Source of the DNA: an uncultured Eubacteriales bacterium
GTDB lineage: Bacteria; Bacillota; Clostridia; Peptostreptococcales; Anaerovoracaceae
DNA: 64,000 bases
Assembly: GCA_902774265.1 (NCBI GenBank)
Contig: CACYHR010000007.1
Location: 6,141 to 70,140, forward strand
Reading direction: 5' to 3'
Shown here: in pieces, positions 2,537 through 32,546 of the stretch
Numbering within the stretch: the stretch's first letter is position 1
Layout of the letters: each line of letters begins with the position of its first letter
The notes under the pieces: model-generated
What the model saw: only the letters and a program-made list of their open reading frames with translations
Database searches by the model: none
Told to the model about the DNA's origin: nothing
Made by a program: the position numbers and the translations under genes

Positions 2537-2628
2537 TAGCTATTCCTCTCAGTCTGTGATCATTTATGACGGCCCGGATAATATTCGCGGACCGATAATC
2601 ACTGCCTTGTTTTGTTATTTTCGTTTTT

Positions 2629-2770
2629 TGTTCAACCAGGAGCAAAGCTCCAACAAGCTCGCTTGATTGAAGCGAGCGACGCCGTCAACAGACACCGGGA
2701 GCTTCAGCTCCTGAGAGCATCAGTGGGGGATTGTTACCCACCACTGATGGTCGAAAATGGAACCCGCCGG
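2629..2770. repeat. Copy A of a conserved structured intergenic element (98-nt core + 25-nt insertion + 18-nt tail)
   Basis: 2629..2726 matches 22980..23077 at 97 of 98 positions by manual alignment, and 2752..2769 is identical to 23078..23095. The flanks are unrelated. 2727..2751 is a copy-specific insertion that completes the hairpin catcagtgg/ccactgatg. Confidence 0.85.
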
Positions 2771-4029: not shown

Positions 4030-4044
4030 CTGACTTCTGTCCTG

Positions 4045-16972: not shown

Positions 16973-18172
16973 TCAGTAAATAAGGACTCTGCTTCCCATA
17001 GGAACTTCATCATAGATCCATTTCGCATTTTTGAGCGCATTTCTTACGCATCCGCCTGATCCCGGAACTCCGAGCTTCCAGCTGGTGCGTTTGCTGTGGA
17101 GAGCATTCAGGGATGAGAAGCATGACCACCACTGAAGACCATGTCTGCTGGAAATCTTCTGATGTAATGTCATTTTTCCGAATGATGTTCCTGTCGGTGT
17201 AGGTGTGCTTGCCTTACCAGTCGAGCAATCCCAGTGTTTATCACATTCCCATCCGTCTGATGTCTTTTTGAAGTGATAAGCATGCTGTGAATAGGTGCTT
17301 ACCCATACCATTTCCTTTGTGCCGCTCTTCAGACCGTAATCGTTCATGAATTCCGTTGCTTCCTTGCGGCTGTAGTCCTTTTTCTTTTCATACTCAACCT
17401 TAGGATTTGCGGCTCTGACTCTGTTCATACAGAATCCGCTTCCGTTATGCTCGAGTATATACTGTCCGCCGGCAAACTTGGTAGCCATAACCTTCTGTCC
17501 TGACTTAAGAGTCCAGCTCTGCTTTTTTCCCCAGTGTGAGTACAGAGTGCAGCCTGCCTTCAGAGTAAGAAGATAGCGTGCAGGTCTGACGCATCTTACC
17601 TTAGTGAGCTTGGCAGTATCTGATTTAAGTTCTGTCAGTCCGTCACTGCCGCTGCGCTTAACGGCTCTTACCTTTACTGTGTATGATTTATAGATGTCAG
17701 GTGTTTTGACAACAAAACTGGTCTTTTTTACTTTTTTCTCTGCTTTGCCGTTATTAGCTTTAACAAGGTAGTAATCTGCACCTTCCGAAGCCTTCCATGT
17801 GATTGTTGCTTTTTTATATCCAGGCTTGGATTTCAGTTTCGTCGGCTTTGCAGGCTTTACAGGCTCTTCAGCCAGCAGATTGCCCTCTTCCTGAACCGTA
17901 ATTCCGTCAGACCCGGCCTCTTCTTCGATAACTGCTGCATCAGTATCAACTACATCAGCGTTTTCAACGATGACACCATCGGAAGTATTCTCTGTAACTG
18001 CATTTTCCCCGCCTTCTGCAGGCTCTTCTGTCTGGATCTCTACCTGTGCTCCTTCTGCAGGTGCCACATTCTCATCAGCCGCAAATGAAGTAAAAATGCA
18101 GCTCGTCATTATCATGATAAGAATGAGCATGATAGATATTGTTTTTGTGTTTTTCTTCATACCTTTCTCCAA
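16973..18172 (-). CDS. Secreted L,D-transpeptidase (YkuD) domain protein with FN3-like module
   Basis: Signal peptide. FN3-like KKATITWKASEGADYYLVKANNG...YTVKVRAV. C-terminal YkuD-like LHS...PGSGGCVRN. Confidence 0.75.
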   Translation of the reverse strand: MEKGMKKNTKTISIMLILIMIMTSCIFTSFAADENVAPAEGAQVEIQTEEPAEGGENAVTENTSDGVIVENADVVDTDAAVIEEEAGSDGITVQEEGNLLAEEPVKPAKPTKLKSKPGYKKATITWKASEGADYYLVKANNGKAEKKVKKTSFVVKTPDIYKSYTVKVRAVKRSGSDGLTELKSDTAKLTKVRCVRPARYLLTLKAGCTLYSHWGKKQSWTLKSGQKVMATKFAGGQYILEHNGSGFCMNRVRAANPKVEYEKKKDYSRKEATEFMNDYGLKSGTKEMVWVSTYSQHAYHFKKTSDGWECDKHWDCSTGKASTPTPTGTSFGKMTLHQKISSRHGLQWWSCFSSLNALHSKRTSWKLGVPGSGGCVRNALKNAKWIYDEVPMGSRVLIY

Positions 18173-18264: not shown

Positions 18265-20004
18265 TTATCCGGAAATCACTTTCCAGATACTATATCCTCC
18301 GATTTTTCTGACTTTTTCAAGATGTATATTCTTTTTACTGCCGCCATACCACTTATTGTAGTATTCTTCCAGCCTGCCGATCCGTTTATTTCCGATATAG
18401 TACGCATTATCGTTATCTATCAGATCCTTTATCGGATTCGTCAGTCCGTATGCTTCCAGTTTTCCCAGTACATACGGCGACATTGTTCCCCAGCTGCCTG
18501 TTCCCATTACGTTTTTATCTTTTGCTGTAGCCGGTGCTTTCCATGGTTTTATATAATCATTGCTGCTTTTCTTTTCAGTAGTAGAGAACACGAAGAAATC
18601 CGAATCGTTATTCTCAATGTATTCAGCAAGCTCCGCCGGCATGACTTTTTTCTGAACGGTCTGATAAGCATCCCGGCAGTTTGAATGCATCGGTACGAGC
18701 ATAAGCAGTGCTGCTATTACTGCAATCGCCGTCACCGCTGAGTGTATCGCTGCTTTATTCCTGCTGACATCATTTTTTATGTAGAAAACACTCGCTGCAT
18801 ACATCAGCCACATCGCAGCGGAAATATCTGCTATGTAAAATGCCCTGTATGCCGGTCTCTGCATATAGTACAGCGCGATGTACAGTGCTGCTGTCAGACC
18901 ACCGACCGCGAATATATACAGAATATGTCTTGGTTTCAGTATAAGCATCATCCATACTGCGATAATAAAGAGCAGTATAAGATGCAGTCCCGAGAAACTC
19001 AGGTTTCGTACAGCTTTGATCACATGCTTTATAAATGATTTTACGGCAGATTTCGCTGCGGCAGCGGTGCTGCTGCCTTTATCACGTGAGGATGCGTCTA
19101 TGTCCACGATTTTTTCGAGATTATCTAAACCGGCTGCTCCGTCATAGTCAAAATACCAGTGATCTATCAGGTAAAGATCATTCCCGGATATTCCTATCTC
19201 ATCATATTTTGCCGCGTTCTCATCATATCTGTCATAAACACCGAAGTCCACCACAGAAGACCTTGCCTCGCTGTATGCCTTGTATCTGCTGAGTTCCTCG
19301 CCCTTTGTGTTTGCAATATATGACATGTGATTGAATACAAAGCATCCGCCTGTCAGCACTATCAGTATCACAAATGTGCCAAGCCGTTTTGATGTCAAAA
19401 ACTTCGTTTCTCCGGAATGCTTTCCTTTATCATCATTTCTGCAGGCAATTAACCACCAGATAACATACAGACCGGCATATGCGATTGCCGGCAGCAGTCC
19501 GTCTGCTCTCAGCGCAGCCCCTGTATAAAGCAGTAAAACAGAAATAACATAATAAACGATACCGTTGTCATAGATAAAAGAGTCCGCCATTACTATGAAT
19601 CCGGCTGCAAGAACGACAGCTGATGTTTTTGTAAACTGTATAGTACAGTAATGGTCTGCGGCAAACAAAGTTATGACTGCCAGTGCGAAAACCGTGATAA
19701 GGCTGCTCGTGCTTCTGTCCATTATCATCTTTGTGATACAGGTAAATGAGAACCATGAAGCTTCGATCTGGAAGATCACATAAACATTCCATGCAGATGT
19801 TAATGCCTGCAGACTTACCAGTATCCGGCAAAGATAGTAATTCACGAAATTGACCGCCGCATAACCGTCAACGATACGTGATGCGATAGCATAGTCATCG
19901 TTTGTCTCGTACAGCATATCAGTTGCTGCCAGAATTAACGCCAGTATAATCAGATTAACGCCGGCTGCAAGCAGCCATGTTCTTTTTGATGAGTATGATG
20001 CCAT
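18265..20004 (-). CDS. Large polytopic membrane protein of unknown function with two extracytoplasmic soluble segments (candidate glycopolymer transferase or polymerase)
   Basis: 579 aa with more than 10 predicted TM segments. Soluble insert around residues 230-310 and a ~130-aa C-terminal soluble domain. No motif I can name. Confidence 0.55.
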   Translation of the reverse strand: MASYSSKRTWLLAAGVNLIILALILAATDMLYETNDDYAIASRIVDGYAAVNFVNYYLCRILVSLQALTSAWNVYVIFQIEASWFSFTCITKMIMDRSTSSLITVFALAVITLFAADHYCTIQFTKTSAVVLAAGFIVMADSFIYDNGIVYYVISVLLLYTGAALRADGLLPAIAYAGLYVIWWLIACRNDDKGKHSGETKFLTSKRLGTFVILIVLTGGCFVFNHMSYIANTKGEELSRYKAYSEARSSVVDFGVYDRYDENAAKYDEIGISGNDLYLIDHWYFDYDGAAGLDNLEKIVDIDASSRDKGSSTAAAAKSAVKSFIKHVIKAVRNLSFSGLHLILLFIIAVWMMLILKPRHILYIFAVGGLTAALYIALYYMQRPAYRAFYIADISAAMWLMYAASVFYIKNDVSRNKAAIHSAVTAIAVIAALLMLVPMHSNCRDAYQTVQKKVMPAELAEYIENNDSDFFVFSTTEKKSSNDYIKPWKAPATAKDKNVMGTGSWGTMSPYVLGKLEAYGLTNPIKDLIDNDNAYYIGNKRIGRLEEYYNKWYGGSKKNIHLEKVRKIGGYSIWKVISG

Positions 20005-20085: not shown

Positions 20086-21531
20086 TTATTCATTGATCCT
20101 GTAGACCTTGATCCACTTTTTACCGGATGGATTAAGTCTGTAGTTTATGCCGGATTCCGAAGTCTCAAGTCTTCCGTATGTGTGCTTGTAATTTGCTTCG
20201 GCGATATATGCCCTGCCGTTACGAACTACATAAATACATACATGCATACCGTTAGGGTGTTTGTACAATATTACATCACCGGTTCTCAGTACACTGTGAT
20301 CACCGTTGTACGCGATTCTCGTAAACAGTCCGGAATTCTCGAAGTAAGGTCCCTGATCGTCCAGTCCACGCGGACAATCCTTCGCTACTCCGCTGGATCT
20401 CAGCACTGTACCGACGAAAACGTCACAGCTGGCTCCCACCTGAGGTGCTTTCCCCCATTTTCTTCCCGGATAGACTTCATCCAGGGCTTTTTTGTAAGCA
20501 TCGGTAGCTTTTCCCGATCCGTAGTTATACTTGCTGGATGATGTATCTTCCGGCCATGCAAGCTCAAACGCTTTTTTAGTTATCTTGTTTGCTCTTTTTG
20601 CAGCTTTTACTGTGAATTTATGGCTGAATACGGTCAGCTTCCTGCCGTTTACTACAGCTACTGCCTTATAGAAAAATTTGCCTGTTTTTAGTTTGCCGAA
20701 TTTGAGACCGCTGTCAAGATCAGCAAGGTCCGCTTTTGTTCCGCTGAGATCCTTTCCGGAGGAGATGACCCATTTGCCGGAAGAATCAGCTACAACAGCA
20801 TCGAGTCTGCTCATCTTCTTTTCGGAGCGGATCGTACCCATAATACTGAAAGGACTTCCTTTTGCAATGGTGTCCGGATATCTGATATCAGACAGAACGA
20901 ATTCTACTCCGTCCGCTGTTACAGATTTGCTTCCTTCGGAGTCATCATTATCGATCTTAAGATTATCATCATCCGAACCTTCAATCTCTACAGCATCGGA
21001 TTTTACATAATAATATTTGCTGTTCTTTTTGATCTTGTACCAGAGCGCATCACTTCCGGAAGCTTTTGCAGCCAGAACAACATCGACCTTATCATCTTTT
21101 TTGAGCGATCCGGCTTTTTTCATTTTGGTGCCGGCTCCCTTATAATACTTTGTTCCGCTTGTTACTGTACCACCGGATTTACTGTACTTTATGTTTTTTA
21201 TCAGATCGGATCTGATATATCCGGTCTGCCCGGATGGTGTTTTGATTTTATACCACCTGTGGGTCTTCTTAATGCTGGTTTTTTTGATGAATACCTCTTT
21301 TTGTATCTTAACACTTGTATTTAATTTGAGAATTGCTTTATTTTTGCTGGATGTGCCGGTCCCGGATCTTACTATCGCACCGCTCTTGGCATTTATTTTT
21401 CCGGTAGCATAATCCGGAGACGCTGCATTTACATTTGTCCCGCCATATATGAACAAAGTCATGACAAGACTTATGATCAGCAGAGCCGATACACATTGTC
21501 TCCTGTTTATTCCTTTAAGACTGTCACGCAT
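20086..21531 (-). CDS. Secreted protein with two SH3b domains, a central domain and a C-terminal NlpC/P60-like cysteine peptidase fold
   Basis: Signal peptide. SH3b-like segments HRWYKIKTPSGQTGYIRSDLI and ALWYKIKKNSKYYYVKSDAV. C-terminal GASCDVFV...GDVILYKHPNGMHVCIYV (Cys/His pattern). Confidence 0.7.
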   Translation of the reverse strand: MRDSLKGINRRQCVSALLIISLVMTLFIYGGTNVNAASPDYATGKINAKSGAIVRSGTGTSSKNKAILKLNTSVKIQKEVFIKKTSIKKTHRWYKIKTPSGQTGYIRSDLIKNIKYSKSGGTVTSGTKYYKGAGTKMKKAGSLKKDDKVDVVLAAKASGSDALWYKIKKNSKYYYVKSDAVEIEGSDDDNLKIDNDDSEGSKSVTADGVEFVLSDIRYPDTIAKGSPFSIMGTIRSEKKMSRLDAVVADSSGKWVISSGKDLSGTKADLADLDSGLKFGKLKTGKFFYKAVAVVNGRKLTVFSHKFTVKAAKRANKITKKAFELAWPEDTSSSKYNYGSGKATDAYKKALDEVYPGRKWGKAPQVGASCDVFVGTVLRSSGVAKDCPRGLDDQGPYFENSGLFTRIAYNGDHSVLRTGDVILYKHPNGMHVCIYVVRNGRAYIAEANYKHTYGRLETSESGINYRLNPSGKKWIKVYRINE

Positions 21532-21677: not shown

Positions 21678-22892
21678 TCAAATCACCGGATCCGGTTCTA
21701 CTTCTATATGTATATTTTCAAGGGCGCGGTGCAGGTATTCGACTGCCTCATCGAGAGTTTCTCCCTTTGCTATCACATGCCCTATTCTGTTTGGCCCTAC
21801 CCTGAATTTACGGACATGTCTGCCCGGTTCAAAGTCAAACTGAATATCACATATATGAGGATCAGGCTGATTATTATTCTGCTGACTCGCTATATTTCCA
21901 TCTTTATCCGACATCAGCAGCATGCTCGCATTAGGTATGAACCCGTTCTTTTCAGCGTCTGCTATGACCTTTTCAAAATCATATTTTTCTCCGATCGCAA
22001 CTCTGATTATGGCTTCGTAATAATCAAAGTCATAATATATCGAAACAAGCTCTGCCAGGCAGGTTGCGCCCGATCTTCCTCCGAGTTCCAGTACATATGT
22101 CATGCCGTTGCTCAGTATGAAGTCTGCATTTATGGCGCAGTTGTCGAGTTTCATTGCTTTTGCCGCCCTGCTGAGCTGATCCCTGGCATCGGCTGCTGTT
22201 TCAGGAGACAGATCGTATGGAGCAAAGTGCCCTATAGGGACGCCTGTATCGCCTTTGAACACATAGTCTCCATGCGGCAGTATAAACTCGAGTTTACCGT
22301 CCTGCACAAAAGCCTGCGCTCCGAACTCTTCACCTTCTATATATTCTTCGACTATAAAATAGTCGGATCTTGTATTTTCGAATACTGTTTTTCTGGCTTC
22401 ATCGAACTGCTCTGCCGAATCGACCTTGACTATGCCGCGGCTTCCGGATGAATCAACGGATTTGAACATTACCGGCATCTGCAGTTCCGAAATTGTCTTC
22501 GCATAGTTTTCTTCAGCAAACGGTATCTTGCGGAACCGCGCGCTTCTGACTCCGTTCTTTTCGTATGCTTCTTTCATCAGCAGTTTATCCGTTGCTATTT
22601 CCGCTGCTCTGAAAGACAGACCTCTGAGTCCCAGTTCATCACAGACCTTGCCTATAGTGATCACGGCAACATCTGTTCCGGCTGTAACTATACCGTCTAC
22701 TTTTTCTTTTTTTGCGATCTCAAGTATGCGCTTATAATCGGTCGTATCCTCATAATAGACCTTATCCGCAAATCTGAAGCCGGGATAGTTACCGCGTATG
22801 CTGGATACGACTGTGTAAATCCCCATTCTTTTCGCCGTTTTGATCAGCGGCACCTGATATGTGCCTGCTCCGAGTATCAGTATCTTTTTCAT
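21678..22892 (-). CDS. ATP-grasp domain ligase (paralog 1)
   Basis: Motifs MKKILILGAGTYQVPLIKTAKRMG, PVMFKSVDSSGSRGIVKV, IVEEYIEGEEF and VLELGGRSG. Same architecture as 26669..27901 and 28926..30029. Confidence 0.8.
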   Translation of the reverse strand: MKKILILGAGTYQVPLIKTAKRMGIYTVVSSIRGNYPGFRFADKVYYEDTTDYKRILEIAKKEKVDGIVTAGTDVAVITIGKVCDELGLRGLSFRAAEIATDKLLMKEAYEKNGVRSARFRKIPFAEENYAKTISELQMPVMFKSVDSSGSRGIVKVDSAEQFDEARKTVFENTRSDYFIVEEYIEGEEFGAQAFVQDGKLEFILPHGDYVFKGDTGVPIGHFAPYDLSPETAADARDQLSRAAKAMKLDNCAINADFILSNGMTYVLELGGRSGATCLAELVSIYYDFDYYEAIIRVAIGEKYDFEKVIADAEKNGFIPNASMLLMSDKDGNIASQQNNNQPDPHICDIQFDFEPGRHVRKFRVGPNRIGHVIAKGETLDEAVEYLHRALENIHIEVEPDPVI

Positions 22893-22979
22893 AGTCCTTT
22901 TTTTTTATAATAAGTCGTAAGATTTATCTTAATTATCCGGCAGATCTAAACTGTATCGCGGCCTTTATGCCCTGAGAAC

Positions 22980-23131
22980 TGTTCAACCAGGAGCAAAGCT
23001 CCAACAAGCTCGCTTGATTGGAGCGAGCGACGCCGTCAACAGACACCGGGAGCTTCAGCTCCTGAGAGCATCAGTGGCGAAAATGGAACCCGCCGCCTAA
23101 GAGGCGGGGGACATCCGGTGTCTGTTATTTT
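22980..23131. repeat. Copy B of the conserved structured intergenic element, including a 12-bp long-range stem
   Basis: 22980..23077 and 23078..23095 match copy A (2629..2726 and 2752..2769). aacagacaccgg (23038..23049) is complementary to ccggtgtctgtt (23115..23126). Internal hairpins on the minus-strand reading: ggagc-tgaa-gctcc, gctcgct-ccaatca-agcgagc, ggagc-ttt-gctcc and cccgcc...ggcggg. Confidence 0.85.
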
Positions 23132-24057
23132 CTGCCTGTATACACATGCCGCACTACATATTGCGGATCATTTGTCATATTCTTGAACATCCGCCCCAGA
23201 TATTCACCTATGACCCCGAGAAACATCATTATCAGTCCCGAGAAGAAGCATATGCTTACCATCATTGAATACCAGCCTACCGCGCTTGTCGGTGCAAAAA
23301 GCTTTTTGAGTACTATGGCGATTGCACCGATTATTCCGAGTATTGAGAAGAATATACCTACCCTCTGCGCTATCCTCAGCGGTACTATGGAATAACCCAT
23401 TATATTGGACCATAGACTTATCAGTTTTTTCAGATTATAGCCCGATGAGCCGTAAGCTCTGTCATAGTGTTCCACCGGTACGCATGCTATATTCCTTGTA
23501 GTCCTGAGGAAGAGTCCCTGCAGGTGAGTGTAATGGCTCCTGTATTCTATTACGTAATCCCTTACGAATTTCCTTATTATCCAGAAGCTCGATGTCTTCA
23601 GTTCCTTAGGTTTGCCGATCAGTATCCTTACGGAGATATAATTGACCCAGCTGCCGAAATTTCTGAATATGCTGTGGTGCTTTTCCGGATAATATCCGTA
23701 TACAATGTCATAGCCTTTGTCGAATTCCTCGAACATCACCGGAAGCTGCGACGGATGAGTCTGCATATCATCATCCATTGCGATAAGTATTTCCCCTTCG
23801 GCATGATTCAGGCCGGCCATGACCGCGTTATGCTGACCGGCATTCTGTGCCAGTTCGATCACTTTGACATACGGATATTCATCGGCAAGTGCCCTTAATT
23901 CACATATCGTATCGCCTCCATCGGGCGAACTGTCATCTACCAGGACGAATTCGTATGGAGTCTTTCCCATCTCTTCCATTTTGGCAGAGGTCAGTTCCAC
24001 TACCTCACGGATAGTGTGTGCAGATTTATAGCAGGGAATTACTATTGAGTACAGCAT
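23125..24057 (-). CDS. GT2 polyprenyl-phosphate glycosyltransferase (GtrB/CsbB/ArnC type), copy a
   Basis: Motifs SIVIPCYKS, VLVDDSSPDG and IAMDDDMQ, plus a C-terminal two-TM hairpin ending GVIGEYLGRMF. The start overlaps the flippase stop by 16 nt. Confidence 0.85.
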   Translation of the reverse strand: MLYSIVIPCYKSAHTIREVVELTSAKMEEMGKTPYEFVLVDDSSPDGGDTICELRALADEYPYVKVIELAQNAGQHNAVMAGLNHAEGEILIAMDDDMQTHPSQLPVMFEEFDKGYDIVYGYYPEKHHSIFRNFGSWVNYISVRILIGKPKELKTSSFWIIRKFVRDYVIEYRSHYTHLQGLFLRTTRNIACVPVEHYDRAYGSSGYNLKKLISLWSNIMGYSIVPLRIAQRVGIFFSILGIIGAIAIVLKKLFAPTSAVGWYSMMVSICFFSGLIMMFLGVIGEYLGRMFKNMTNDPQYVVRHVYTGRK

Positions 24058-25343
24058 TCGATCTCCTTTTTCTCTTTATTAAGCGCTCTGACTGTGATGG
24101 CACCCAGCGATACAGCAAGGAATGTCATAAGGATAAGGTTGACAAGTGCCGCTCCCATGATGCCGTATGATCTGATCAGCGGCCCCGCCATCAGTTTCGC
24201 GGCAACCGCCGCAATTCCGTAGCAGTAGGTAAGCGGTCTCTGCGCTCTGATAACCGCCATCAGTGTGCTGAAATATATGCTGTATGCCAGCATGCCTCCG
24301 CTCACCATTATTACGCACAGCTCCGCTTTGTAATTCGAAAGGTCAGTGCCGAATATGATAGACAGTACAGGTATGCCTATCGTAGCGGCGACGACCACAG
24401 CCAGAACAGCCAGTCCGAGAACCACCAGACACATCTGTCTGATCATTTTTATCAGTCTCCTGAATTTAGCTGCTTCGTGTGACTGCCACATTTCAGCATA
24501 TACGACCAGTACAGGGTTGAATATAAACTGCGTCACCATCTGTACTACATATGTCGGCATAAAAATCTTATTGTATATTGACTGTATCTCATCTGTAAGA
24601 TAAGCATCAATTGCGTATTTCGGTGCGTTACTTATGTACATATTCAGGAACAGGCTCAGAAAGAGCGGGAAACCTTCTATCAGAAGCAGCCTGAATTTGT
24701 CCGCCGTGATCGACGGTTTCATCGTATCCGTATAGAATCTCGTGGCGTTTACCGATGTCAGCATCAGTACGGCAAATGATATGACAAGACATACCATGAC
24801 GGCCAGACACAGATCATGGAACACGATAAGCACGATAACATAAGCTGCTAGTTCCGCCGTATATCTTATCGATGCGGCCTTACCTGCAACATCCAGTCTG
24901 TTTTTCTGCTGCAGATGACCGTGCAGCACATCCGCATATGCCTGTATAGCTTTGATGAGGCAGATGCCCATTACTACAGAGAATTTGGAAAAGCTGTAAT
25001 CTCTGTACATGACACCGAATATGCTGTACATAAGACAGCCTGCCAGCATTGCAGCACAGCTTATGAACCTCATCGCATGGTATTCGCAGAATTTAAAATC
25101 CTCATTGATATCTGAAGACTGATAACGTCTCAGACCATACTGACCGAGGAAATACATCAGGTTGGCTTCCGCCAGCGCTATCGAGAATATACCGGCGTCG
25201 GTCTCTCCGTTCGTCCTTGTCGCTACTGCAAGAACGACCGGACTCTGCATAGCCAGTATCATTGCGTTCACGGCATTCCATATATAGGAACTGCGTCCGG
25301 TATTATTCGTTTTTTCAAGAAATCTGACTATAGCTTTTAACAT
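24042..25343 (-). CDS. MOP-superfamily (Wzx-like) lipid-linked glycan flippase
   Basis: 433 aa with about 12 TM. N-terminal layout and length are typical of polysaccharide biosynthesis (Wzx) proteins. No catalytic motif is expected. Confidence 0.7.
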   Translation of the reverse strand: MLKAIVRFLEKTNNTGRSSYIWNAVNAMILAMQSPVVLAVATRTNGETDAGIFSIALAEANLMYFLGQYGLRRYQSSDINEDFKFCEYHAMRFISCAAMLAGCLMYSIFGVMYRDYSFSKFSVVMGICLIKAIQAYADVLHGHLQQKNRLDVAGKAASIRYTAELAAYVIVLIVFHDLCLAVMVCLVISFAVLMLTSVNATRFYTDTMKPSITADKFRLLLIEGFPLFLSLFLNMYISNAPKYAIDAYLTDEIQSIYNKIFMPTYVVQMVTQFIFNPVLVVYAEMWQSHEAAKFRRLIKMIRQMCLVVLGLAVLAVVVAATIGIPVLSIIFGTDLSNYKAELCVIMVSGGMLAYSIYFSTLMAVIRAQRPLTYCYGIAAVAAKLMAGPLIRSYGIMGAALVNLILMTFLAVSLGAITVRALNKEKKEIECCTQ

Positions 25344-25348
25344 AAGTT

Positions 25349-26665
25349 TTACATTCTGCAGATAAAGCAGCGCATCTTTCCGTTCTCATCAGGAGGTATC
25401 TCATCCATCCACTCGAATACAAGCCTGTATTCCGGTCTTCCGTAGAGTTCCTCTACCTTCCTTTCGTAGAACTTCTCAATGTCCTCCTTTGTAGTATCTT
25501 GGTTTCCCGGATCCTTGACGAGCAGTATATGTATCTCATCTATTGCTGTCTGGACATATCTGAACTGAGCTATACCCGTAATTCCGTTCGGTATCTTCAT
25601 CAGTTCTGTTGCAGATGTCTCCGTACCGTCTGCATGTCTGACCATGTCATTAGTCCTGCCCTTTATGGTCTTGATATATCTTACACCCTCTACAGTCTCA
25701 GAGGTGGCAGTATCACCAATCTCATAATTGATGATAGGGAAATCCCTCTTATACAGAGTCGTTCCGATGACCCTTCCCTCATCCGCAAGCGCTCCGTTAT
25801 CGTCGATCAGATTAAGCACATGCGTATCCGCATAAATATAATACTTGTCCATGCCAGGCAGCCTGACAGCGCAGCTTCCGGTCTCATTGCATCCGTATGC
25901 ATCCATCAGTCCCGGTCCGTATGTCTCAAGCAGCAGCTTGCGTGTCATCTCATCTACCATCTCACTGACCGGAGTGTAAACCTTAGGCTGGTGTATCTTC
26001 ATATCATGCTTCTTTGCATATAGAGCCATCCTGACCAGCACATTTTTACGGAAACACAGACAATCCGGCTTGTAATCATTCACAAGCTCTATCAGATCTC
26101 TCATTCCCTCACCTACGTAAAGATGTTCCGGAACGATCTTACGTCTCATTAATCCGAGCTTCTGCACCCATGAATCACCCTTTTTAGGGTCTACTTTTGA
26201 ATGAGTCGTCAGGAAAGAGAGCATTTTGCCGGTAAAAGGTTTGTATCCGGCAAACATCAGCACTCTGATCCAGTTGGCATTCATGCATGCTGCCTCGCGG
26301 TGTGTAAGTGCAAATTTAAGAGGAACTCCTGACGAACCGCTGGTGCTGAAAATCTCCCAATCCTGAGCTTTGTCCGGATGAGCCTCGAACTCGCTCTGCA
26401 TCCATTCCCGCAGATCCTTTCTCGTCATTACAGGGAATTTTACAAGATCCTCAGTGCATGTAAAATCATCGGGCGTCAGTCCGAGTTCATCGAATTTTGC
26501 CCTGTAATAAGGCACATGAGAATATGCCCTCTTCATCGTCTTATGGACCAGCCTGTCCTGACGGGCTTTGATCTTTTTGTGATCCTGCGGCACTTTTTTA
26601 TCCAGTTTCATCAGATAATAAAATGTCATCACATTCTTGAATTCTTTTTTGATAAATGAAGCCAT
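25349..26665 (-). CDS. Adenylate-forming ligase of the phenylacetate-CoA ligase (PaaK/CapK/F390 synthetase) family
   Basis: 438 aa. Motifs FSTSGSSGVPLKF, YGCNETG and VIGTTLYKRDFPIINYEIGD, with a PaaK-like size. Confidence 0.8.
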   Translation of the reverse strand: MASFIKKEFKNVMTFYYLMKLDKKVPQDHKKIKARQDRLVHKTMKRAYSHVPYYRAKFDELGLTPDDFTCTEDLVKFPVMTRKDLREWMQSEFEAHPDKAQDWEIFSTSGSSGVPLKFALTHREAACMNANWIRVLMFAGYKPFTGKMLSFLTTHSKVDPKKGDSWVQKLGLMRRKIVPEHLYVGEGMRDLIELVNDYKPDCLCFRKNVLVRMALYAKKHDMKIHQPKVYTPVSEMVDEMTRKLLLETYGPGLMDAYGCNETGSCAVRLPGMDKYYIYADTHVLNLIDDNGALADEGRVIGTTLYKRDFPIINYEIGDTATSETVEGVRYIKTIKGRTNDMVRHADGTETSATELMKIPNGITGIAQFRYVQTAIDEIHILLVKDPGNQDTTKEDIEKFYERKVEELYGRPEYRLVFEWMDEIPPDENGKMRCFICRM

Positions 26666-26668
26666 ATC

Positions 26669-27901
26669 CTACTCCCATATCGGGCCTTTTAAGCCCTCGT
26701 TCGTTTCGATTTGTATATCTATGATATTGCGTATCTCTCCGATACGTTCGATCATCTCTTTTCTGCTGCCTGCATGCAGTATGACCGCGCAGCGCTGATC
26801 CTTGTCTTCAAGAGCATGTGTCATCATGCCGGTTTTGATATCGTTGAACTTGGTCTTGACGACATAATCCAGTTTTTCCACTTTATCCAGTCCCGCGATC
26901 GACACGATCCGTCCCTGCGGCAGATAGAAGCATGCGTACCCGGCATGACATTTGTTCATTTCAAAATCAGGTACATCATCAAGCTGTCCGAGTGCTGTTT
27001 TTACCAGGAAATCAGCTGTATCAAGACCGGTCTCAAGCTTTGCTATATGCGAGGCGATATATGTTCCGCCGCCTCTCAGTGCGGCTTCTATCAGATATAT
27101 CTCGCCTGTCTTTTCATCCATGATATATTCATTATGAGAAATGCCCTGCTTCATGCCAAAGCCCTCATTGATGCGGTTGCTGTATGCCAGCAGGCGCTCA
27201 ACGGTAAGCGGATCTGCCTCAGAAGGATACAGTCTTGAAGCAGAGGAGAAAACATTTGGGATACTGAATTCATTGAGATCTGCGTACATAAGTACTCTGA
27301 CGTGTCCGTTCACGGCTATTGAATCCACCTCGAACTGCGGACCTTCAACAAATCTCTCCACAATAATATCGCCGCTTTCGGAATACTGCTTCGCTTCATC
27401 CCACTTCTCCATGAGTTCAGCTTCACTACGGATCTTTGATATTCCTCTGCTGCTGCAGTTATCCACCGGTTTTATGATAGCCGTCCCGTTCAGGCTTCTG
27501 AATATCCGGACTGCCTCATCAGGCTCTCTGACCACATAGCTTTCTATAGTGGCAAGTCCCAGCTCTTTGCTCCTCTTCCTCATGAGATGTTTGTCGGTGT
27601 ACAGACAGGCCGTCTCGTATCCGTTACCCGGCAGTCCGAGTTTTTCCGCAACATATGCGACAGGTCTGACGAATATCTCCGCCTGATCGGAGATTATCCC
27701 GTCGATCTGTTCTCTGCGTGCCGCCTCGAGCACAAACTCAGCATCCCTTGCATCATGGAACAGCACCTTGTCAGCTGCTTTTATTCCCGGGTAGTCCCCG
27801 TCAGGTGTAACGCATATGACCTGCAGACCATGTTTCTTTGCTGCATTTATGAGGGGCATCTGGAAGGTTCCTGCCCCCAGTATCATTAGTTTAGCGCTCA
27901 A
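26669..27901 (-). CDS. ATP-grasp domain ligase (paralog 2)
   Basis: Motifs KLMILGAGTFQMPLINAAKKHG, AIIKPVDNCSSRGISKI, IVERFVEGPQFE and LIEAALRGGG. Confidence 0.8.
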   Translation of the reverse strand: MSAKLMILGAGTFQMPLINAAKKHGLQVICVTPDGDYPGIKAADKVLFHDARDAEFVLEAARREQIDGIISDQAEIFVRPVAYVAEKLGLPGNGYETACLYTDKHLMRKRSKELGLATIESYVVREPDEAVRIFRSLNGTAIIKPVDNCSSRGISKIRSEAELMEKWDEAKQYSESGDIIVERFVEGPQFEVDSIAVNGHVRVLMYADLNEFSIPNVFSSASRLYPSEADPLTVERLLAYSNRINEGFGMKQGISHNEYIMDEKTGEIYLIEAALRGGGTYIASHIAKLETGLDTADFLVKTALGQLDDVPDFEMNKCHAGYACFYLPQGRIVSIAGLDKVEKLDYVVKTKFNDIKTGMMTHALEDKDQRCAVILHAGSRKEMIERIGEIRNIIDIQIETNEGLKGPIWE

Positions 27902-27935
27902 TTTACCGTCTCTTTTCTTCTGTATATGAAATATC

Positions 27936-28922
27936 TTAAAGTTTTTCTGCTGTGTTTACACTATCTGCTGCATCATATGCTTCTGACGATCTCACTACCG
28001 TCCTGATCACATATTGCGGATTCTGGTTGAGACTGAGATATATCCTTCCGATATATTCTCCTATCACGCCAAGCACCATCATTATCATTCCCCCGATAAG
28101 TATCTGTGTTGCTATCATTGATGTCCATCCCAGCGCAATATCATCTCTTGTAAGTTTGATTATGACCAGTATGATAACTATCACAAATGCTGCTATAGCC
28201 ATCAGCATCCCGAGAATAACTGCCAGTCTCAGCGGCTTGACCGAAAAGGTCGTCAGTCCGTTGACCCATGTTGAGAGCAGTTTCTTCAGATTATAACCCG
28301 AACTGCCGGCTGCCCTGTTCTTTTGATCCACATCCACATTGCCAATATTGAATGTGGTCCTCAGCAGCAGCCCTTCCATATGCGGATATGCATTGTTGTA
28401 TCGGATTATTTCATCGATCACGAATCTCTTCGCCAGAAAATAAACTGATGTGTTCACTCCTTCCGGTTTTTCCATGCATATCCTGACAAGAGTGTCATTC
28501 GCCTTGCTTCCCAGCTTTCTGAATACGCTGCGGCGGCCTCTGTCCTGATAATTCGCGCAGACCACATCATAATTACCCTCGATCATGTGATCGTAAAATC
28601 TGAATACAGTCTCTATAGGAGTCTGTCCGTCATCATCGCTTACGGCTACAAGTTCTCCCCTTGTATATCTGAGCCCTGCCATGATTGCGCACTGCTGTCC
28701 GCTGTTTTTGGCAAGGTCTATGCCTGTTATATTGTCATACTGTTTCATCAGTTCCTGTATTGTATTCCAGGTTCCGTCCGGTGAACAGTCATTTACCAGT
28801 ATGATCTCCGATTCAAAACCATCATGGCTCTTTACGGTTTCTTCGATAGTTTTTACTACTCCCCCCAGAGTGTCCTGAGACCTGTAGCAGGGGATCACAA
28901 AAGATATCAGCATTATTATCAA
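27936..28922 (-). CDS. GT2 polyprenyl-phosphate glycosyltransferase (GtrB/CsbB/ArnC type), copy b
   Basis: Motifs SFVIPCYRS, ILVNDCSPDG and VAVSDDDGQ, plus a C-terminal two-TM hairpin ending GVIGEYIGRIY. Confidence 0.85.
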   Translation of the reverse strand: MIIMLISFVIPCYRSQDTLGGVVKTIEETVKSHDGFESEIILVNDCSPDGTWNTIQELMKQYDNITGIDLAKNSGQQCAIMAGLRYTRGELVAVSDDDGQTPIETVFRFYDHMIEGNYDVVCANYQDRGRRSVFRKLGSKANDTLVRICMEKPEGVNTSVYFLAKRFVIDEIIRYNNAYPHMEGLLLRTTFNIGNVDVDQKNRAAGSSGYNLKKLLSTWVNGLTTFSVKPLRLAVILGMLMAIAAFVIVIILVIIKLTRDDIALGWTSMIATQILIGGMIMMVLGVIGEYIGRIYLSLNQNPQYVIRTVVRSSEAYDAADSVNTAEKL

Positions 28923-28925
28923 CCT

Positions 28926-30029
28926 CTAGAATTTAAATATATAGTATCCGTGTCTGTTCGAACTGTCGGTAACGATATCGGCAAAATCCGTGTCTATATG
29001 TTCCCTGAGTATCGTTCCGGGATGTTCCTGTTTGAATTTTTCATATTCTACCACATCATCCGCATCCATAATGAAGTTGACGCCGGCAAATTCTCTGCGG
29101 CTGATCTGCGGTATCTCCGGTTCGTTCCCCATAGCAACATCTATAACCGCTCTGACATAATCATAGCCCGTGGATAATTCAACAAGATCGCTTCCGATGA
29201 AATCTCCTCCCATTCTTCCGCCGATCTCAATTATACGTATATTGTCGCCGTCTATCTTGATCTCGATATGTGCTGCTCCGTTTTCCAGGCCGAGCGTATC
29301 AAGAGCATGTTCTGATATGGCCTTTATATGTTCAACAGTATCATCATCAAGAGGAGCAGGCTCTCTGTGTCCGGTCTCTATAAAGTAAGGTGCTCCTGTT
29401 GTGATCTTTTGCGTTGCAGAAATAAACCAGTGCTTTCCTTTGAAAGAAATATACTCTATGCTGTATTCATCACCTGACACAAATTCCTCTACTACGGCCC
29501 TGTTCTCAAAACTGTATTCTCTTGCCTTGAAAATAGCGTTCCTGAGCTGCTTCAGATTGTTTACCTTGTGCACACCGCGGCTCCCGCTTCGGTCTGTCGG
29601 CTTGACGATAAGCGGATAGTTCAGATCTATTGCTGCGGGATCCGTGGAAGCGTCCACCAGCATGCTTCTCGGACTCGGATCGCCTGCAGCCTCAAACGCC
29701 TTTCTCATCCAGTGTTTATTGGTGCTGATCTTCGTTGCTTCTATCGTATTGCCGGGGAGACCCATTTTTTCTGCTATATAATTTACTGTCTCCATTGCGA
29801 GATCGGATGCTATACTGACTATTCCGTCTATTCCTATCTCTCTGCATTTTTCGAGGATCTCGTCTTTTTCCCTTATGCTTATCGGATAAAAATAATCTGC
29901 TATCTCTTCACCCGGATCTCCGGCTGCCCATGCGAAAACATGCGTCTCCAGACCCATTTCCTTAGCTTTGATTATTGAAGGCTCCTGAAACAATGCGGCT
30001 CCGATTATCGCAATTTTTTTCTTCTCCAT
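28926..30029 (-). CDS. ATP-grasp domain ligase (paralog 3)
   Basis: Motifs KKIAIIGAALFQEPSIIKAKEMG, LIVKPTDRSGSRGVHKV, VVEEFVSGDEYS and IIEIGGRMGG. I prefer the ATG at 30029 (GGGGGAG upstream) over the track start at 30101. Confidence 0.8.
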   Translation of the reverse strand: MEKKKIAIIGAALFQEPSIIKAKEMGLETHVFAWAAGDPGEEIADYFYPISIREKDEILEKCREIGIDGIVSIASDLAMETVNYIAEKMGLPGNTIEATKISTNKHWMRKAFEAAGDPSPRSMLVDASTDPAAIDLNYPLIVKPTDRSGSRGVHKVNNLKQLRNAIFKAREYSFENRAVVEEFVSGDEYSIEYISFKGKHWFISATQKITTGAPYFIETGHREPAPLDDDTVEHIKAISEHALDTLGLENGAAHIEIKIDGDNIRIIEIGGRMGGDFIGSDLVELSTGYDYVRAVIDVAMGNEPEIPQISRREFAGVNFIMDADDVVEYEKFKQEHPGTILREHIDTDFADIVTDSSNRHGYYIFKF

Positions 30030-30114
30030 CTGTTCTCCCCCTTCCTGGCAAGATTCTATCATATTGCGGACAGCTCTGCAGAGATGTACGGAATTTCTCA
30101 TAAAATAATCACAT

Positions 30115-31365
30115 TTAATGCTGTCTCATTATCCTGTGCAGTACGCGCTCCGATGCGTGCCCGTCATCGAGAGGGCAGTATCTGCTGCAGAATTCCTCAT
30201 ATTTCTCATCCGGTGTCCAGTCCTCTGTATCTTTTACTGCCTTTATGAGATCAGCCTCGTTCTGAACGATCTCTCCCGGCAGTTCATCGAGCGAGATGTA
30301 AAATCCCCTCAGCTCATTTTTGTATTGCTCCAGATCGTACATGAAAAAGATCACAGGTTTTCTCAGTATGGAATAATCAAAGAAAACGCTGGAATAGTCT
30401 GTAATCAGAATATCCGCTGCAATATAAAGATCGTTGATGTCGCTGTAGCCCGAAACATCGCGCACAAAATCTCCGTATCTGTCGAAATCGAAGCTGTTCG
30501 CTACCAGGTAGTGCGCTCTGAAGAGTATCACATATTCATCGCCGAGCTCTTTTTTGAGCCTGTCAAAATCGACTTCGGTCTTATATGTGTAGCCCTCCCC
30601 GCTGGTGTGCTGATTATCTCTCCATGTCGGCGCGTAAAGTATGCATTTCCTGCCCTCGACACCCAGTTTCTGTCTCAGGACGATGCGTTCCTCTTCTGTT
30701 GTGAGCGATAGTCTGTCATTTCGCGGATAACCCTCTTCGATTATCTTATTCATCTGCCCGGTTCTGACCAGATTCCATGCACTTGCGAATTTCTCAGTCG
30801 TAAAAGGCGACGGCGAAAGAAGATACGAGAACTTCTTCGCGTCAGTCCTGTATTTGCTGTGTATCTCCGCCAGAGAATTCATGGAGTTATCGCTCTCTGT
30901 CAGATCGTAGCCCAGCTTTTTGAGAGGGGTTCCGTGCCAGCACTGGACGTATATCTGATCCCTGCGCGGATACTGATGATCCAGCATCCTGTAATTCGAG
31001 ATCCAGTACTTCGCTGTCCTAAGGGCTATATTGTCCTCTCTCGTCCTGAATTTTACTATCCGGGTCCTCTCATTCGCGAGGAAATCGTATTTTTCCGGCT
31101 CTTTAAAGCTCCAGACGAAGCTGAAATCTCTGTATTCGGGAGCTTTCATCATGTATTCATACATCGCCTTGGGTGAATCGCTGTAACCGCGGCCGGAAAA
31201 AGTCTGGAAATAGACAAGCCTGTCGTCGGTTTTGCCGAAGGGTCTGTCGGCGACCATTTTGGCATGATAAAACTTATCTCTTCCGGTTCTTGCAGCTATG
31301 CGGAATGTCCGGTTCTTTTTCGCCAGATCAAATATCTTTTTTTTGATTATGTATGCTAATCTCAT
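30115..31365 (-). CDS. CDP-glycerol glycerophosphotransferase family protein, TagB-like (short type)
   Basis: Motifs YSDSPKAMYEY, QCWHGTPLKKLGYD, LYAPTWRD and ITDYSSVFFDYSILRKPVIFFMYDLEQY. Paralog of 38902..40164. Confidence 0.85.
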   Translation of the reverse strand: MRLAYIIKKKIFDLAKKNRTFRIAARTGRDKFYHAKMVADRPFGKTDDRLVYFQTFSGRGYSDSPKAMYEYMMKAPEYRDFSFVWSFKEPEKYDFLANERTRIVKFRTREDNIALRTAKYWISNYRMLDHQYPRRDQIYVQCWHGTPLKKLGYDLTESDNSMNSLAEIHSKYRTDAKKFSYLLSPSPFTTEKFASAWNLVRTGQMNKIIEEGYPRNDRLSLTTEEERIVLRQKLGVEGRKCILYAPTWRDNQHTSGEGYTYKTEVDFDRLKKELGDEYVILFRAHYLVANSFDFDRYGDFVRDVSGYSDINDLYIAADILITDYSSVFFDYSILRKPVIFFMYDLEQYKNELRGFYISLDELPGEIVQNEADLIKAVKDTEDWTPDEKYEEFCSRYCPLDDGHASERVLHRIMRQH

Positions 31366-31376
31366 TTTATTATTCT

Positions 31377-32546
31377 CTACTGCGCATCAGGATTATTCAT
31401 TTCTTCTGCTTCTCCGCTTACTATGCGTATGAAATTATCCATAGTGATCTTTCCGCTTATCTTCAGTCTGTTTACAGCATATCTGTCATCAGATCTGAGA
31501 GCATAATAGAACGGACGGTATGCAAATGCCATCTTGTATCCGCTGTCTTTGAGAGCTCTCTGCATCTTCTTCGAATATGTCCCCCATGGATATGCGAGAT
31601 ATCTGAAACCGAATTTGTCGCACTTTTTGCAGTCTTCAACGATCTGCTCATATGTAAATCCCTTGGCAGGCTTCTTTCCGTCTACCCTGTTATGCATATC
31701 ATATGTGTGGCTCTCAAATGAGAATCTCGGATATTCGGTCCTCATTTTTTCGATAACATCCTGCCTGACATAATGATCTTTAGGCGCGTCCGGATCAAAT
31801 TCATCAGTAACGCCTTCCGAGTTTTTGCCGATACAGAATACCGTGGCGGCCTGATCGTATTTCTTTATGATAGGATATGCCAGATAATATGTCCCGTAGA
31901 ATCCGTCGTCAAAAGTAACCATAACAGTCTTGACCGGGAACTCCTTTTTGCCTTTGTGCCACTGATAAAATTCGTCCGGAGTAATGGTCTTATATCCGTT
32001 ATCATGCAGATACTTCATATGTTCCTCAAAGGTATCTTCGGTTACAAGCAGTGTCGAAGTAAATGTATGGCCCTTTGGTATTATCTTGTGATATGTAATG
32101 ATAGGTATCTTCTGAGCGTATTTTGCAGTTTCGTACTCTGCGCTGACCTCCTCGGATGCCTCTCCTTCTGTTGCCTTGTGTGTCAGAGGATTCCTGTTTA
32201 ACGGTACTACTTTGAAGCTGTAAGGTTTATCATGCTCATAGTCCTTATATTTCCAGGATGTTGTCTCTTTGCCGTCCAGGGTGTCCGCCTTAATAAAGTC
32301 TCCCCCGTCAGACACATAAATATCATATCCGTCTGCATGCCCGGCAATGTCCCAGCTGAGTTTTATCCGCGCAAAGGTCGCCTTGGCGCTGAGACCCTGC
32401 ACCTGTTCCGGCTCAGCGTTATTATAAATAAAGAATATCGCAGCAGCGAGTACTACAGCTGCCGCAGCACATATCGCTATGAATCTCTTGAGTATACGGT
32501 TTTTACTTGTCTGTCTTTTCTTTTCCACTGCCATTAGATCATCCAC
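31377..32546 (-). CDS. Secreted polysaccharide deacetylase (CE4/NodB) with N-terminal FN3-like module
   Basis: TM anchor. FN3-like ARIKLSWDIAGHADGYDIYVSDGG...SFKVVPL. NodB motifs VTFDDGF, SHTYDMH and RYLAYPWG. Confidence 0.85.
   Translation of the reverse strand: MDDLMAVEKKRQTSKNRILKRFIAICAAAAVVLAAAIFFIYNNAEPEQVQGLSAKATFARIKLSWDIAGHADGYDIYVSDGGDFIKADTLDGKETTSWKYKDYEHDKPYSFKVVPLNRNPLTHKATEGEASEEVSAEYETAKYAQKIPIITYHKIIPKGHTFTSTLLVTEDTFEEHMKYLHDNGYKTITPDEFYQWHKGKKEFPVKTVMVTFDDGFYGTYYLAYPIIKKYDQAATVFCIGKNSEGVTDEFDPDAPKDHYVRQDVIEKMRTEYPRFSFESHTYDMHNRVDGKKPAKGFTYEQIVEDCKKCDKFGFRYLAYPWGTYSKKMQRALKDSGYKMAFAYRPFYYALRSDDRYAVNRLKISGKITMDNFIRIVSGEAEEMNNPDAQ

Follow-up and report, generated by a model that had tools for sequence, protein, structure and literature searches.

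Glycosylation of lipoteichoic acid and wall teichoic acid is carried out in known systems by three components: a CsbB or GtlA/GtrB-type family 2 glycosyltransferase (GT2), a GtcA flippase, and a YfhO or GtlB transferase of the GT-C type (PMC5836110, PMC7389260). The Arn pathway (ArnB, ArnA, ArnC, ArnD, ArnE/F, and ArnT) places 4-amino-4-deoxy-L-arabinose on lipid A. In Vibrio cholerae, a 2026 study found that the addition of glycine to a lipid-linked sugar requires the CapK-like enzyme VpsH (PMC13463779), and this is the first genetic precedent for CapK-like enzymes in glycan tailoring. In Campylobacter jejuni HS:2, the protein Cj1438 is a fusion of a GT2 with a TupA-like ATP-grasp amidoligase (PMC11800379). 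Here we analyze a locus that resembles each of these systems in part. It lies in a 64,000-nucleotide (nt) stretch of DNA, hereafter the window, from an uncultured Eubacteriales bacterium of the family Anaerovoracaceae (contig CACYHR010000007.1, positions 6,141 to 70,140), and it centers on a seven-gene cassette encoding three ATP-grasp ligases, a CapK/PaaK-like ligase, two GT2 enzymes, and a Wzx-type flippase.

Comparison with related loci indicates that this cassette represents an enlarged version of a conserved module that is widespread in gut and rumen Gram-positive anaerobes. The delivery route that it appears to use is already known (PMC5836110, PMC7389260); full-text literature searches found no description of this enzyme combination. 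The genes that bear on the argument are listed below by window position, first the cassette in its order of transcription and then four genes outside it.

28926 to 30101, minus strand: AG3, L-amino-acid ligase (LAL)-like ATP-grasp ligase (Pfam ATP-grasp_4, E = 1e-22); variable accessory cassette
27936 to 28922, minus strand: GT2b, GtrB/ArnC/PgfS-like polyprenyl-phosphate glycosyltransferase (Pfam GT2, E = 2e-26); accessory cassette
26669 to 27901, minus strand: AG2, LAL-like ATP-grasp ligase (ATP-grasp_4, E = 2e-11); accessory cassette
25349 to 26665, minus strand: CapK/PaaK-like adenylate-forming ligase, 438 amino acids (aa); core gene
24042 to 25343, minus strand: Wzx-type (Polysacc_synt) flippase, 433 aa (PF01943, 30 bits versus a cutoff of 28.2)
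23125 to 24057, minus strand: GT2a, ArnC/GtrB-like undecaprenyl phosphate (Und-P) glycosyltransferase; core gene, paired with AG1
22893 to 23124, minus strand: 232-nt spacer with a terminator-like hairpin (23108-23089) and a structured repeat (22980-23077)
21678 to 22892, minus strand: AG1, ATP-grasp ligase with a LAL_C2 domain; core gene
18265 to 20004, minus strand: TM579, GT-C fold membrane glycosyltransferase by structure model and Foldseek, 579 aa
15875 to 16879, plus strand: L-lactate dehydrogenase (LDH)-family 2-hydroxyacid dehydrogenase (TIGR01771, 328 bits versus a cutoff of 304)
12746 to 13765, minus strand: RfbB, dTDP-glucose 4,6-dehydratase (TIGR01181, 490 bits versus a cutoff of 365)
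11511 to 12638, minus strand: WecE, dTDP-4-amino-4,6-dideoxyhexose transaminase (NF008687, 636 bits versus a cutoff of 375)

An open reading frame check of the window confirmed the seven co-directional genes at the coordinates and spacing given by an earlier, sequence-only reading of the same DNA. The intergenic distances were 3, 34, 3, and 5 nt, followed by a 16-nt overlap of the Wzx-type gene with the start of GT2a and then by the 232-nt spacer. The gene family identities proposed in that reading also held up in profile searches (Pfam, NCBIfam, and precomputed annotation), as did its placement of the cassette in a teichoic-acid operon: the flanks contain several TagF/TarF/TarB-like genes, TagGH, a TagO-like GT4, an LCP protein, an LtaS-like protein, and Dlt-like genes. 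A TagF gene (30115-31365) directly precedes the cassette on the same strand.

We compared the locus with 160 related loci, 80 of them genome loci anchored on the CapK-like gene and 80 of them metagenome loci anchored on AG1. Counts were made on the CapK-anchored loci that were flanked by at least 7 kb on both sides (44 loci), and on the 36 AG1-anchored metagenome contigs of at least 12 kb. Among the CapK-anchored loci, a GT2 was present in 41, an ATP-grasp gene in 40, a flippase in 38, a large transmembrane (TM) or GT-C protein in 28, WecE in 21, and a 2-ketoacid reductase in 16. The AG1-anchored loci contained GT2a (34/36), the CapK-like gene (32/36), a Wzx-type flippase (29/36), YfhO (26/36), WecE (22/36), and a 2-ketoacid reductase (6/36). 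The recurring core thus comprised adjacent GT2a and AG1 genes, the CapK-like ligase, a flippase, WecE, and a large polytopic or GT-C protein. The flippase in relatives was either of the Wzx type or an ArnE/ArnF-like pair, the latter replacing Wzx or joining it. Gene order in the AG1-anchored loci was typically YfhO-WecE-GT2-AG-Wzx-CapK(-PanE), and a same-strand GT2 lay within 400 nt of the ATP-grasp gene in 119 of 148 cases among the related loci.

The CapK-like homologues defined the range of carriers. Those in rumen Anaerovoracaceae and Mogibacterium metagenome-assembled genomes (MAGs) were 85-91% identical to the window protein, those in Coriobacteriales/Atopobiaceae MAGs 68-71%, and those in Lachnospiraceae (among them Dorea, Marvinbryantia, Muricoprocola aceti, Jingyaoa shaoxingensis, and strains 3-2 and MD308) 52-75%. 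The Lachnospiraceae version included a compact operon, YfhO-WecE-GT2-AG, with Wzx on the opposite strand and CapK-PanE following. That operon contained no acyl carrier protein (or other carrier protein) and no N-acyltransferase; therefore, any acylation would have to be performed by the ATP-grasp and CapK-like ligases themselves.

The expectation that the seven genes would co-occur as a unit in relatives failed when it was checked. The related loci shared the core only, and AG3-GT2b-AG2 occurred in only a few close relatives, with orthologues restricted to loci L002, L003, and L033. The slot has the TagF gene on one side and the CapK-like gene on the other; among the nearest other relatives, loci L129, L087, and L009 carried there a different cassette of GT2, ATP-grasp, and ArnE/F-like genes, and loci L004-L008 carried nothing. 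Judged from these gene contents, the slot occupied by AG3-GT2b-AG2 (26669-30101) behaves like a serotype-type insert that is hypervariable among close relatives.

The proteins predicted to deliver the sugar resembled the three-component systems in several respects. GT2a aligned with the ArnC model over residues 4-306 (147 bits) and with PgfS (138 bits); GT2b aligned over its full length with PgfS (148 bits) and ArnC (140 bits). Because both fell below the ArnC and PgfS equivalog cutoffs, they are members of the family and not orthologues. They were 41% identical to one another, and each had a pair of C-terminal hydrophobic segments (residues 229-277 in GT2a, 225-284 in GT2b), in agreement with the C-terminal two-TM hairpin noticed previously in both; over the pair, the segments fall at roughly residues 225-285. 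The Wzx-like protein was a multi-TM protein, and its score was marginally over the Polysacc_synt cutoff.

TM579 matched no Pfam family, and in relatives it adjoins GT2a-AG1. An AlphaFold2 model built from a 42-sequence alignment was of high confidence (predicted local distance difference test [pLDDT] 93.2, predicted template modeling score [pTM] 0.92). The top 11 Foldseek matches to this model were all GT-C proteins, with ArnT (5ezm) first, and PglB, STT3, EmbC, and DPY19 among the others (probability 0.87-1.0, TM-score 0.28-0.43). Residues Y32-E33 and D36-D37, which follow the first TM segment, were invariant in the alignment. On the strength of this model, TM579 is predicted to be the transferase that moves the sugar from Und-P to an extracytoplasmic acceptor. 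In Lachnospiraceae the equivalent position was occupied by YfhO (identified at E = 2e-106), and a Coriobacteriaceae locus carried a DUF6541 protein. Neither TM579 nor a second polytopic protein, TM708 (described below), showed a significant relation to YfhO, DUF6541, or family f33 in Pfam or in hhalign comparisons of small family alignments.

Three features of a three-component system were found: a hairpin GT2, a flippase encoded alongside it, and a GT-C fold protein nearby. The idea that a sugar is loaded onto Und-P, flipped, and transferred was strengthened by the fold of TM579 and by YfhO at the same position in Lachnospiraceae. The likeness to CsbB/GtcA/YfhO extends to the teichoic-acid context, to a GT2 predicted to make an Und-P-sugar, and to a dedicated flippase; the GT-C protein is YfhO itself in the Lachnospiraceae version and TM579 in the window. 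The two differ in that the flippase here is Wzx-type (ArnE/F-like in relatives) and not GtcA, TM579 has no sequence-detectable relation to YfhO, and the module adds WecE, an ATP-grasp ligase, and a CapK-like ligase, whereas the known systems transfer plain N-acetylglucosamine, galactose, or glucose.

The Arn pathway offered a second comparison. Both include a 4-amino sugar made by an aminotransferase, an N-acylation that precedes loading onto Und-P by an ArnC-like enzyme (here proposed), flipping of the lipid-linked sugar (with ArnE/F-like pairs in relatives), and a GT-C transferase that completes the route. ArnT was the best structural match of TM579, and a gene of the CE4 deacylase type lay nearby. 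In contrast to Arn, the hosts are Gram-positive, the sugar is a dTDP-6-deoxyhexose (WecE) and not a UDP-pentose, the acylation is predicted to be ATP-dependent through ATP-grasp and CapK-like ligases, and the acceptor would be a wall polymer and not lipid A. An ArnA-like formyltransferase was not detected among the window proteins scanned. No gene reached an Arn equivalog cutoff (WecE on ArnB, 191 versus 631 bits; the GT2 proteins on ArnC, 140-147 versus 529 bits), so that the relation is one of shared logic and not of membership.

The sugar itself is suggested by WecE and RfbB, which lie about 9 kb downstream of the cassette and both exceed their NCBIfam equivalog cutoffs. Orthologues of WecE (66-83% identical) were found within the module or next to it in Anaerovoracaceae, Lachnospiraceae, and Coriobacteriia, and the WecE and RfbB of the window are orthologues of those inside the module elsewhere. 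We therefore consider WecE the predicted source of an amino sugar for the cassette, a prediction drawn from gene neighborhoods. Two candidate acceptors had been put forward for the ligases, the free 4-amino group of dTDP-Fuc4N and the carboxylate of UDP-glucuronic acid (UDP-GlcA). The former is now favored and the latter is not, because WecE is recurrent (in or beside the module in the 21/44 and 22/36 loci above) and Ugd is absent (0/160 related loci). With respect to the dTDP-Fuc4N(Ac) branch of enterobacterial common antigen biosynthesis, RfbB and WecE were present and WecD/WecF were not represented: a WecD-type acetyltransferase was found neither in the conserved module nor among the scanned window genes. 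The window itself also contained no homologue of PanE, YfhO, ArnE/F, or DUF6541.

The three ATP-grasp proteins all matched ATP-grasp_4 (Pfam, E from 1e-22 to 2e-11) and were 27-31% identical in pairwise comparisons, consistent with the earlier description of them as divergent paralogs. The nucleotide-loop motif K-P-x-D-x-S-G-S-R-G attributed to all three was exact in AG3 only; AG1 has K-S-V-D-S-S-G-S-R-G and AG2 has K-P-V-D-N-C-S-S-R-G. AG1 exceeded the LAL_C2 cutoff of 29.4 bits (50.9 bits), AG2 fell below it (23.4 bits), and AG3 had no LAL_C2 match in Pfam. Thus, only AG1 has the complete architecture of the LAL subfamily, an ATP-grasp core with LAL C-terminal domain 2. The probable true start of AG3 is the ATG at 30029, which has GGGGGAG upstream and would give a product of 367 aa.

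For all three proteins the closest Protein Data Bank (PDB) entry was 4dim; the next matches were the LAL BL00235 for AG3, and BL00235 and BacD for AG2. Inspection of the alignment puts AG1 at roughly 45% identity to 4dim over the full length. Entry 4dim is an uncharacterized structural-genomics deposit from Anaerococcus prevotii, labeled 'phosphoribosylglycinamide synthetase'. By sequence it is a full-length member of this glycan-associated ATP-grasp family, and the deposited name is probably wrong. More than 2400 homologues of AG1 were found at E ≤ 1e-20, and among those listed the fullest name was 'ATP-grasp domain-containing protein'. The likeness of the three proteins to L-amino-acid ligases (BacD/YwfE, BL00235, and RizA) and to 4dim lies in the pre-ATP-grasp domain, ATP-grasp_4, and, in AG1, LAL_C2. 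They differ from those ligases in having a glycan context and not an antibiotic one, in the predicted nucleophile (a sugar-borne amine), and in scores far below the relevant cutoffs (BacD, 52-59 versus 850 bits; DdaF, 24-42 versus 840 bits). As in Cj1438, a GT2 and an ATP-grasp amide ligase would be coupled physically and functionally in surface-glycan biosynthesis. The ATP-grasp domains are of different types (ATP-grasp_4/LAL_C2 here, TupA-like there), with no match of AG1-AG3 to the TupA-like family in Pfam at E ≤ 0.01. Furthermore, the GT2 of Cj1438 polymerizes whereas that of the module is a predicted Und-P loader, and the substrates of Cj1438 are a glucuronic acid (GlcA) carboxylate and an amine phosphate.

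The CapK-like protein is a distant relative of PaaK, scoring 84 bits (E = 6e-24) on TIGR02155 against a cutoff of 646. Its best PDB relative was PaaK 2y27 (E = 9e-15). It had no Pfam-A match in the copy of Pfam that was scanned, but precomputed annotation places the recently defined CapK_C family (PF27533) on this exact protein and on nearly all homologues among the matches listed. The adenylation loop STSGSSGxP (T108-S-G-S-x-G-x-P115) and the C-terminal G429-K430 were invariant in the homologues. NatL2, AjiA1, and BagE were among its weak matches; these are PaaK-family ligases whose adenylates are condensed directly with nucleophiles.

Two unrelated reductase families were found 4-30 nt from the CapK-like gene in relatives. 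An LDH-like gene lay 4-22 nt away in the five fully flanked relatives measured, and the LDH-like gene of the window is 71-74% identical to members of this family. In Lachnospiraceae, a PanE-type 2-ketoacid reductase unrelated to the LDH-like one adjoins the CapK-like gene. Because this amounts to a non-orthologous replacement beside the CapK-like gene, the enzyme would be expected to activate a 2-hydroxy acid. Amino acids are thus no longer the sole candidates for the acyl donor, since the gene neighborhoods suggest that one donor is a 2-hydroxy acid, and the window LDH-like gene is a candidate supplier of the acid substrate. The CapK-like gene and the PanE-like reductase were also seen as an isolated pair (L043, L044, L058, L060, L062, and L063), indicating that this sub-module leads an independent existence. 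In L044 the pair sits amid housekeeping genes (helicase, ABC transporter, and RNA methyltransferase), and neither a GT2 nor an ATP-grasp gene occurs within 10 kb.

VpsH resembles the CapK-like ligase in kind: each is a CapK/PaaK-like enzyme in a glycan locus, implicated in a sugar amide on a lipid-linked intermediate. Nevertheless, VpsH works in a Wzx/Wzy repeat unit on a uronic-acid carboxylate, whereas the CapK-like gene of the module co-occurs with no uronic-acid gene and has WecE and a 2-ketoacid reductase as its partners.

We propose the following route, in which the enzyme identities of the first step and the fold of the last enzyme are computational results and the remaining steps are inferred. 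RfbB and WecE, whose identities are given by equivalog scores and whose link to the cassette is suggested by synteny, would make a dTDP-4-amino-4,6-dideoxyhexose, nominally dTDP-Fuc4N. The free 4-amino group would then be N-acylated in ATP-dependent steps by the ATP-grasp and CapK-like ligases. AG1, as a LAL-type enzyme, may acylate through an amino-acid acyl-phosphate. The CapK-like ligase may work through an acyl-adenylate whose acid is probably a 2-hydroxy acid, for example L-lactate, furnished by the linked LDH-like or PanE-like reductase. The family and topology of GT2a suggest that this ArnC-like enzyme would move the N-acyl sugar onto Und-P, after which Wzx would flip the lipid-linked sugar. 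TM579, by its modeled fold, would hand the sugar to an extracytoplasmic acceptor, here most likely TagF-made teichoic acid in view of the genomic context. AG3-GT2b-AG2 may be a second, strain-variable GT2/ATP-grasp set that gives either another variant of the decoration or one with a longer chain. The earlier suggestion that up to four successive ligations build a peptide is speculative.

We consider there to be about an even chance that, as these genes suggest, an Arn-like and CsbB-YfhO-like three-component route delivers an N-acylated 4-amino-4,6-dideoxyhexose to a wall polymer, the N-acyl group presumably being aminoacyl and/or 2-hydroxyacyl. A broader proposal is more tentative, and we judge it less likely than not: LAL-type ATP-grasp enzymes and a CapK-like ligase would together equip an Und-P-carried 4-amino-4,6-dideoxyhexose with an N-acyl chain of aminoacyl, 2-hydroxyacyl, or short peptide-like type, and a GT-C enzyme would then graft the sugar onto teichoic acid or another wall polymer. 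Such a decoration would form an unrecognized class, widespread in gut and rumen Clostridia and Coriobacteriia, in which the number and type of cassettes in the hypervariable slot set the strain-specific surface chemistry. It would also make sugar-borne amines a new class of ATP-grasp substrate.

Several observations weigh against the proposed route. The decoration is a prediction, well supported by comparative genomics, for which no carrier organism has established chemistry. VpsH, the only CapK-like enzyme studied genetically, amidates a uronic-acid carboxylate and does not acylate an amino sugar (PMC13463779). Only about half of the loci have WecE within 10 kb; the window copy lies 9 kb off with unrelated genes between, and a homologue of RmlA is absent from the window. 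Scored as an L-lactate dehydrogenase, the LDH-like gene could belong to housekeeping metabolism. Four loci (L043, L044, L058, and L060) carry the CapK-like gene and PanE-like reductase with no GT2 or ATP-grasp gene nearby, and in L024 the CapK-like gene is beside TagF/RfbB without an ATP-grasp gene; the tie of the CapK-like enzyme to the ATP-grasp step is thus not obligatory. Lastly, the Lachnospiraceae loci adjoin capsule-type or wall-enzyme genes and not TagF, and so the acceptor is not established.

The last point leads to the alternative that survives best, to which we assign a real but minor chance: the same donor pathway could serve the O-glycosylation of secreted or membrane proteins, as in streptococcal PgfS/GtrB with a GT-C enzyme. 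The PgfS scores of the two GT2 proteins nearly equal their ArnC scores, wall proteins with fn3/YkuD, SH3, and GH25 domains flank the module in both Anaerovoracaceae and Lachnospiraceae, TagF genes are missing from the Lachnospiraceae loci, and protein glycosylation by GtrB and a GT-C enzyme is documented (PMC12041528). Against this alternative, the window and its Anaerovoracaceae relatives place the module in a TagF/TagGH locus, right after a same-strand TagF gene. Moreover, the N-terminal linker of the flanking YkuD protein is acidic and not Ser/Thr-rich.

We regard as unlikely a second alternative, in which the acylated amine of the proposed route is replaced by a uronic-acid amide. Here Ugd would make GlcA or another uronic acid, the C6 carboxylate would be activated by the CapK-like enzyme and/or the ATP-grasp ligases and amidated with amino acids or amines, and the product would be delivered via Und-P. 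Both relevant precedents concern carboxylates: the glycine amide of lipid-linked GulNAcA depends on VpsH (PMC13463779), and Cj1438C, an ATP-grasp enzyme fused to a GT2, amidates GlcA (PMC11800379). A ugd gene is also present in the window (49787-51010), but it is about 20 kb from the cassette and on the opposite strand, and the ATP-grasp ligases do not match the TupA-like family of Cj1438C in Pfam at E ≤ 0.01. An association of Ugd with the module was rejected, and the route is disfavored, because Ugd is lacking in all 160 related loci whereas WecE recurs.

It is improbable that the ligases instead make a free dipeptide, depsipeptide, or acyl-amino acid as a small metabolite or wall precursor, with the glycosyltransferases clustered nearby by coincidence. 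Their nearest characterized relatives are L-amino-acid ligases that do make free dipeptides, the pairing of a reductase with an ATP-grasp enzyme recalls VanH/VanA, and CapK-PanE pairs exist away from glycan genes. However, the coupling of GT2 and ATP-grasp genes makes a free product unlikely: the adjacency counted above (119/148) spans three bacterial lineages, mostly at translational-coupling distances, and a flippase and a GT-C enzyme flank the module. The idea that the ATP-grasp proteins are housekeeping PurK/PurT/PurD, Ddl, or carbamoyl-phosphate synthase fragments present by chance, for which one could cite sub-threshold matches and the glycinamide ribonucleotide synthetase label of 4dim, has a negligible chance of being correct and is effectively refuted by equivalog scores far under every curated cutoff (for example, purD 58 versus 288 bits, purT 48 versus 502, and Ddl 53 versus 243), by the presence of three paralogues within a variable glycan cassette, and by the origin of that label in an uncharacterized structural-genomics entry.

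Two further genes lie upstream of the cassette.

32611 to 34737, minus strand: TM708, polytopic membrane protein with a C-terminal extracytoplasmic domain, 708 aa (weak DUF6541 match, E = 0.004)
31377 to 32546, minus strand: membrane-anchored CE4 polysaccharide deacetylase, PgaB/IcaB-like (Polysacc_deac_1, E = 2e-14; PgaB 89 bits, below cutoff)

TM708 is conserved, with many invariant residues, and its gene lies directly beside the CapK-like gene in L016, L021, L024, and L034. Its profile matched no PDB sequence, and a single-sequence AlphaFold model was unusable (pLDDT 42). It is possible that TM708 is a second transferase. The CE4 deacetylase gene accompanies the module in few of the related loci, and its product is possibly an extracytoplasmic de-N-acylase that is peripheral to the module.

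Genes for secreted wall enzymes that carry fn3-type domains, among them YkuD L,D-transpeptidase-like, SH3, and GH25 proteins, adjoin the module in Anaerovoracaceae and Lachnospiraceae; the enzymes might bind to the decorated polymer or act as acceptors. They occur at 16973-18172, 20086-21531, and 9977-11386 of the window, at 2237-4153 and 15098-16972 of L105, and at 5337-7067 of L114. The window also encodes a DltA-like adenylation enzyme (255 bits versus a DltA cutoff of 560) and two MBOAT/DltB-like proteins (46123-47628, 47735-49315, and 58455-59867). The locus may thus encode a second, non-canonical acylation route, besides or replacing classical D-alanylation.

The 232-nt spacer contains a repeat copy, as had been noticed, of 98 nt and 99% identity to 2629-2726. 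The element is a structured intergenic repeat of about 115 nt (RNA fold z-score -3.7), and copy A (2629-2726) has a 25-nt insertion relative to copy B (22980-23077). Both copies are located just downstream of minus-strand genes, copy B following the terminator-like hairpin, and L001, a metagenome contig of the same species, ends exactly at a repeat copy. An Rfam scan of 14-36 kb gave no matches, the repeat included, and the repeat matched no plasmid. A promoter scan gave no signal above that expected from shuffled sequence.

Decorations of wall polymers govern phage adsorption, immune recognition, autolysin targeting, and resistance to cationic antimicrobials, and next to nothing is known of them in the dominant anaerobes of the gut and rumen. 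Human-gut Lachnospiraceae (Dorea, Marvinbryantia, and relatives), rumen Anaerovoracaceae, and some Coriobacteriia commonly carry the module described here. It joins a known delivery route to two ATP-dependent ligases that have hardly been explored as tailoring enzymes of glycans. Because cultured carriers exist, among them Muricoprocola aceti, Jingyaoa shaoxingensis NSJ-46, and the Lachnospiraceae strains 3-2 and MD308, the prediction is directly testable. If true, it would give a function to the large family of 'ATP-grasp domain-containing proteins', PDB 4dim included, and would extend the role of CapK-like ligases seen with VpsH. It would also provide a genetic marker of strain-level surface diversity in the microbiome.

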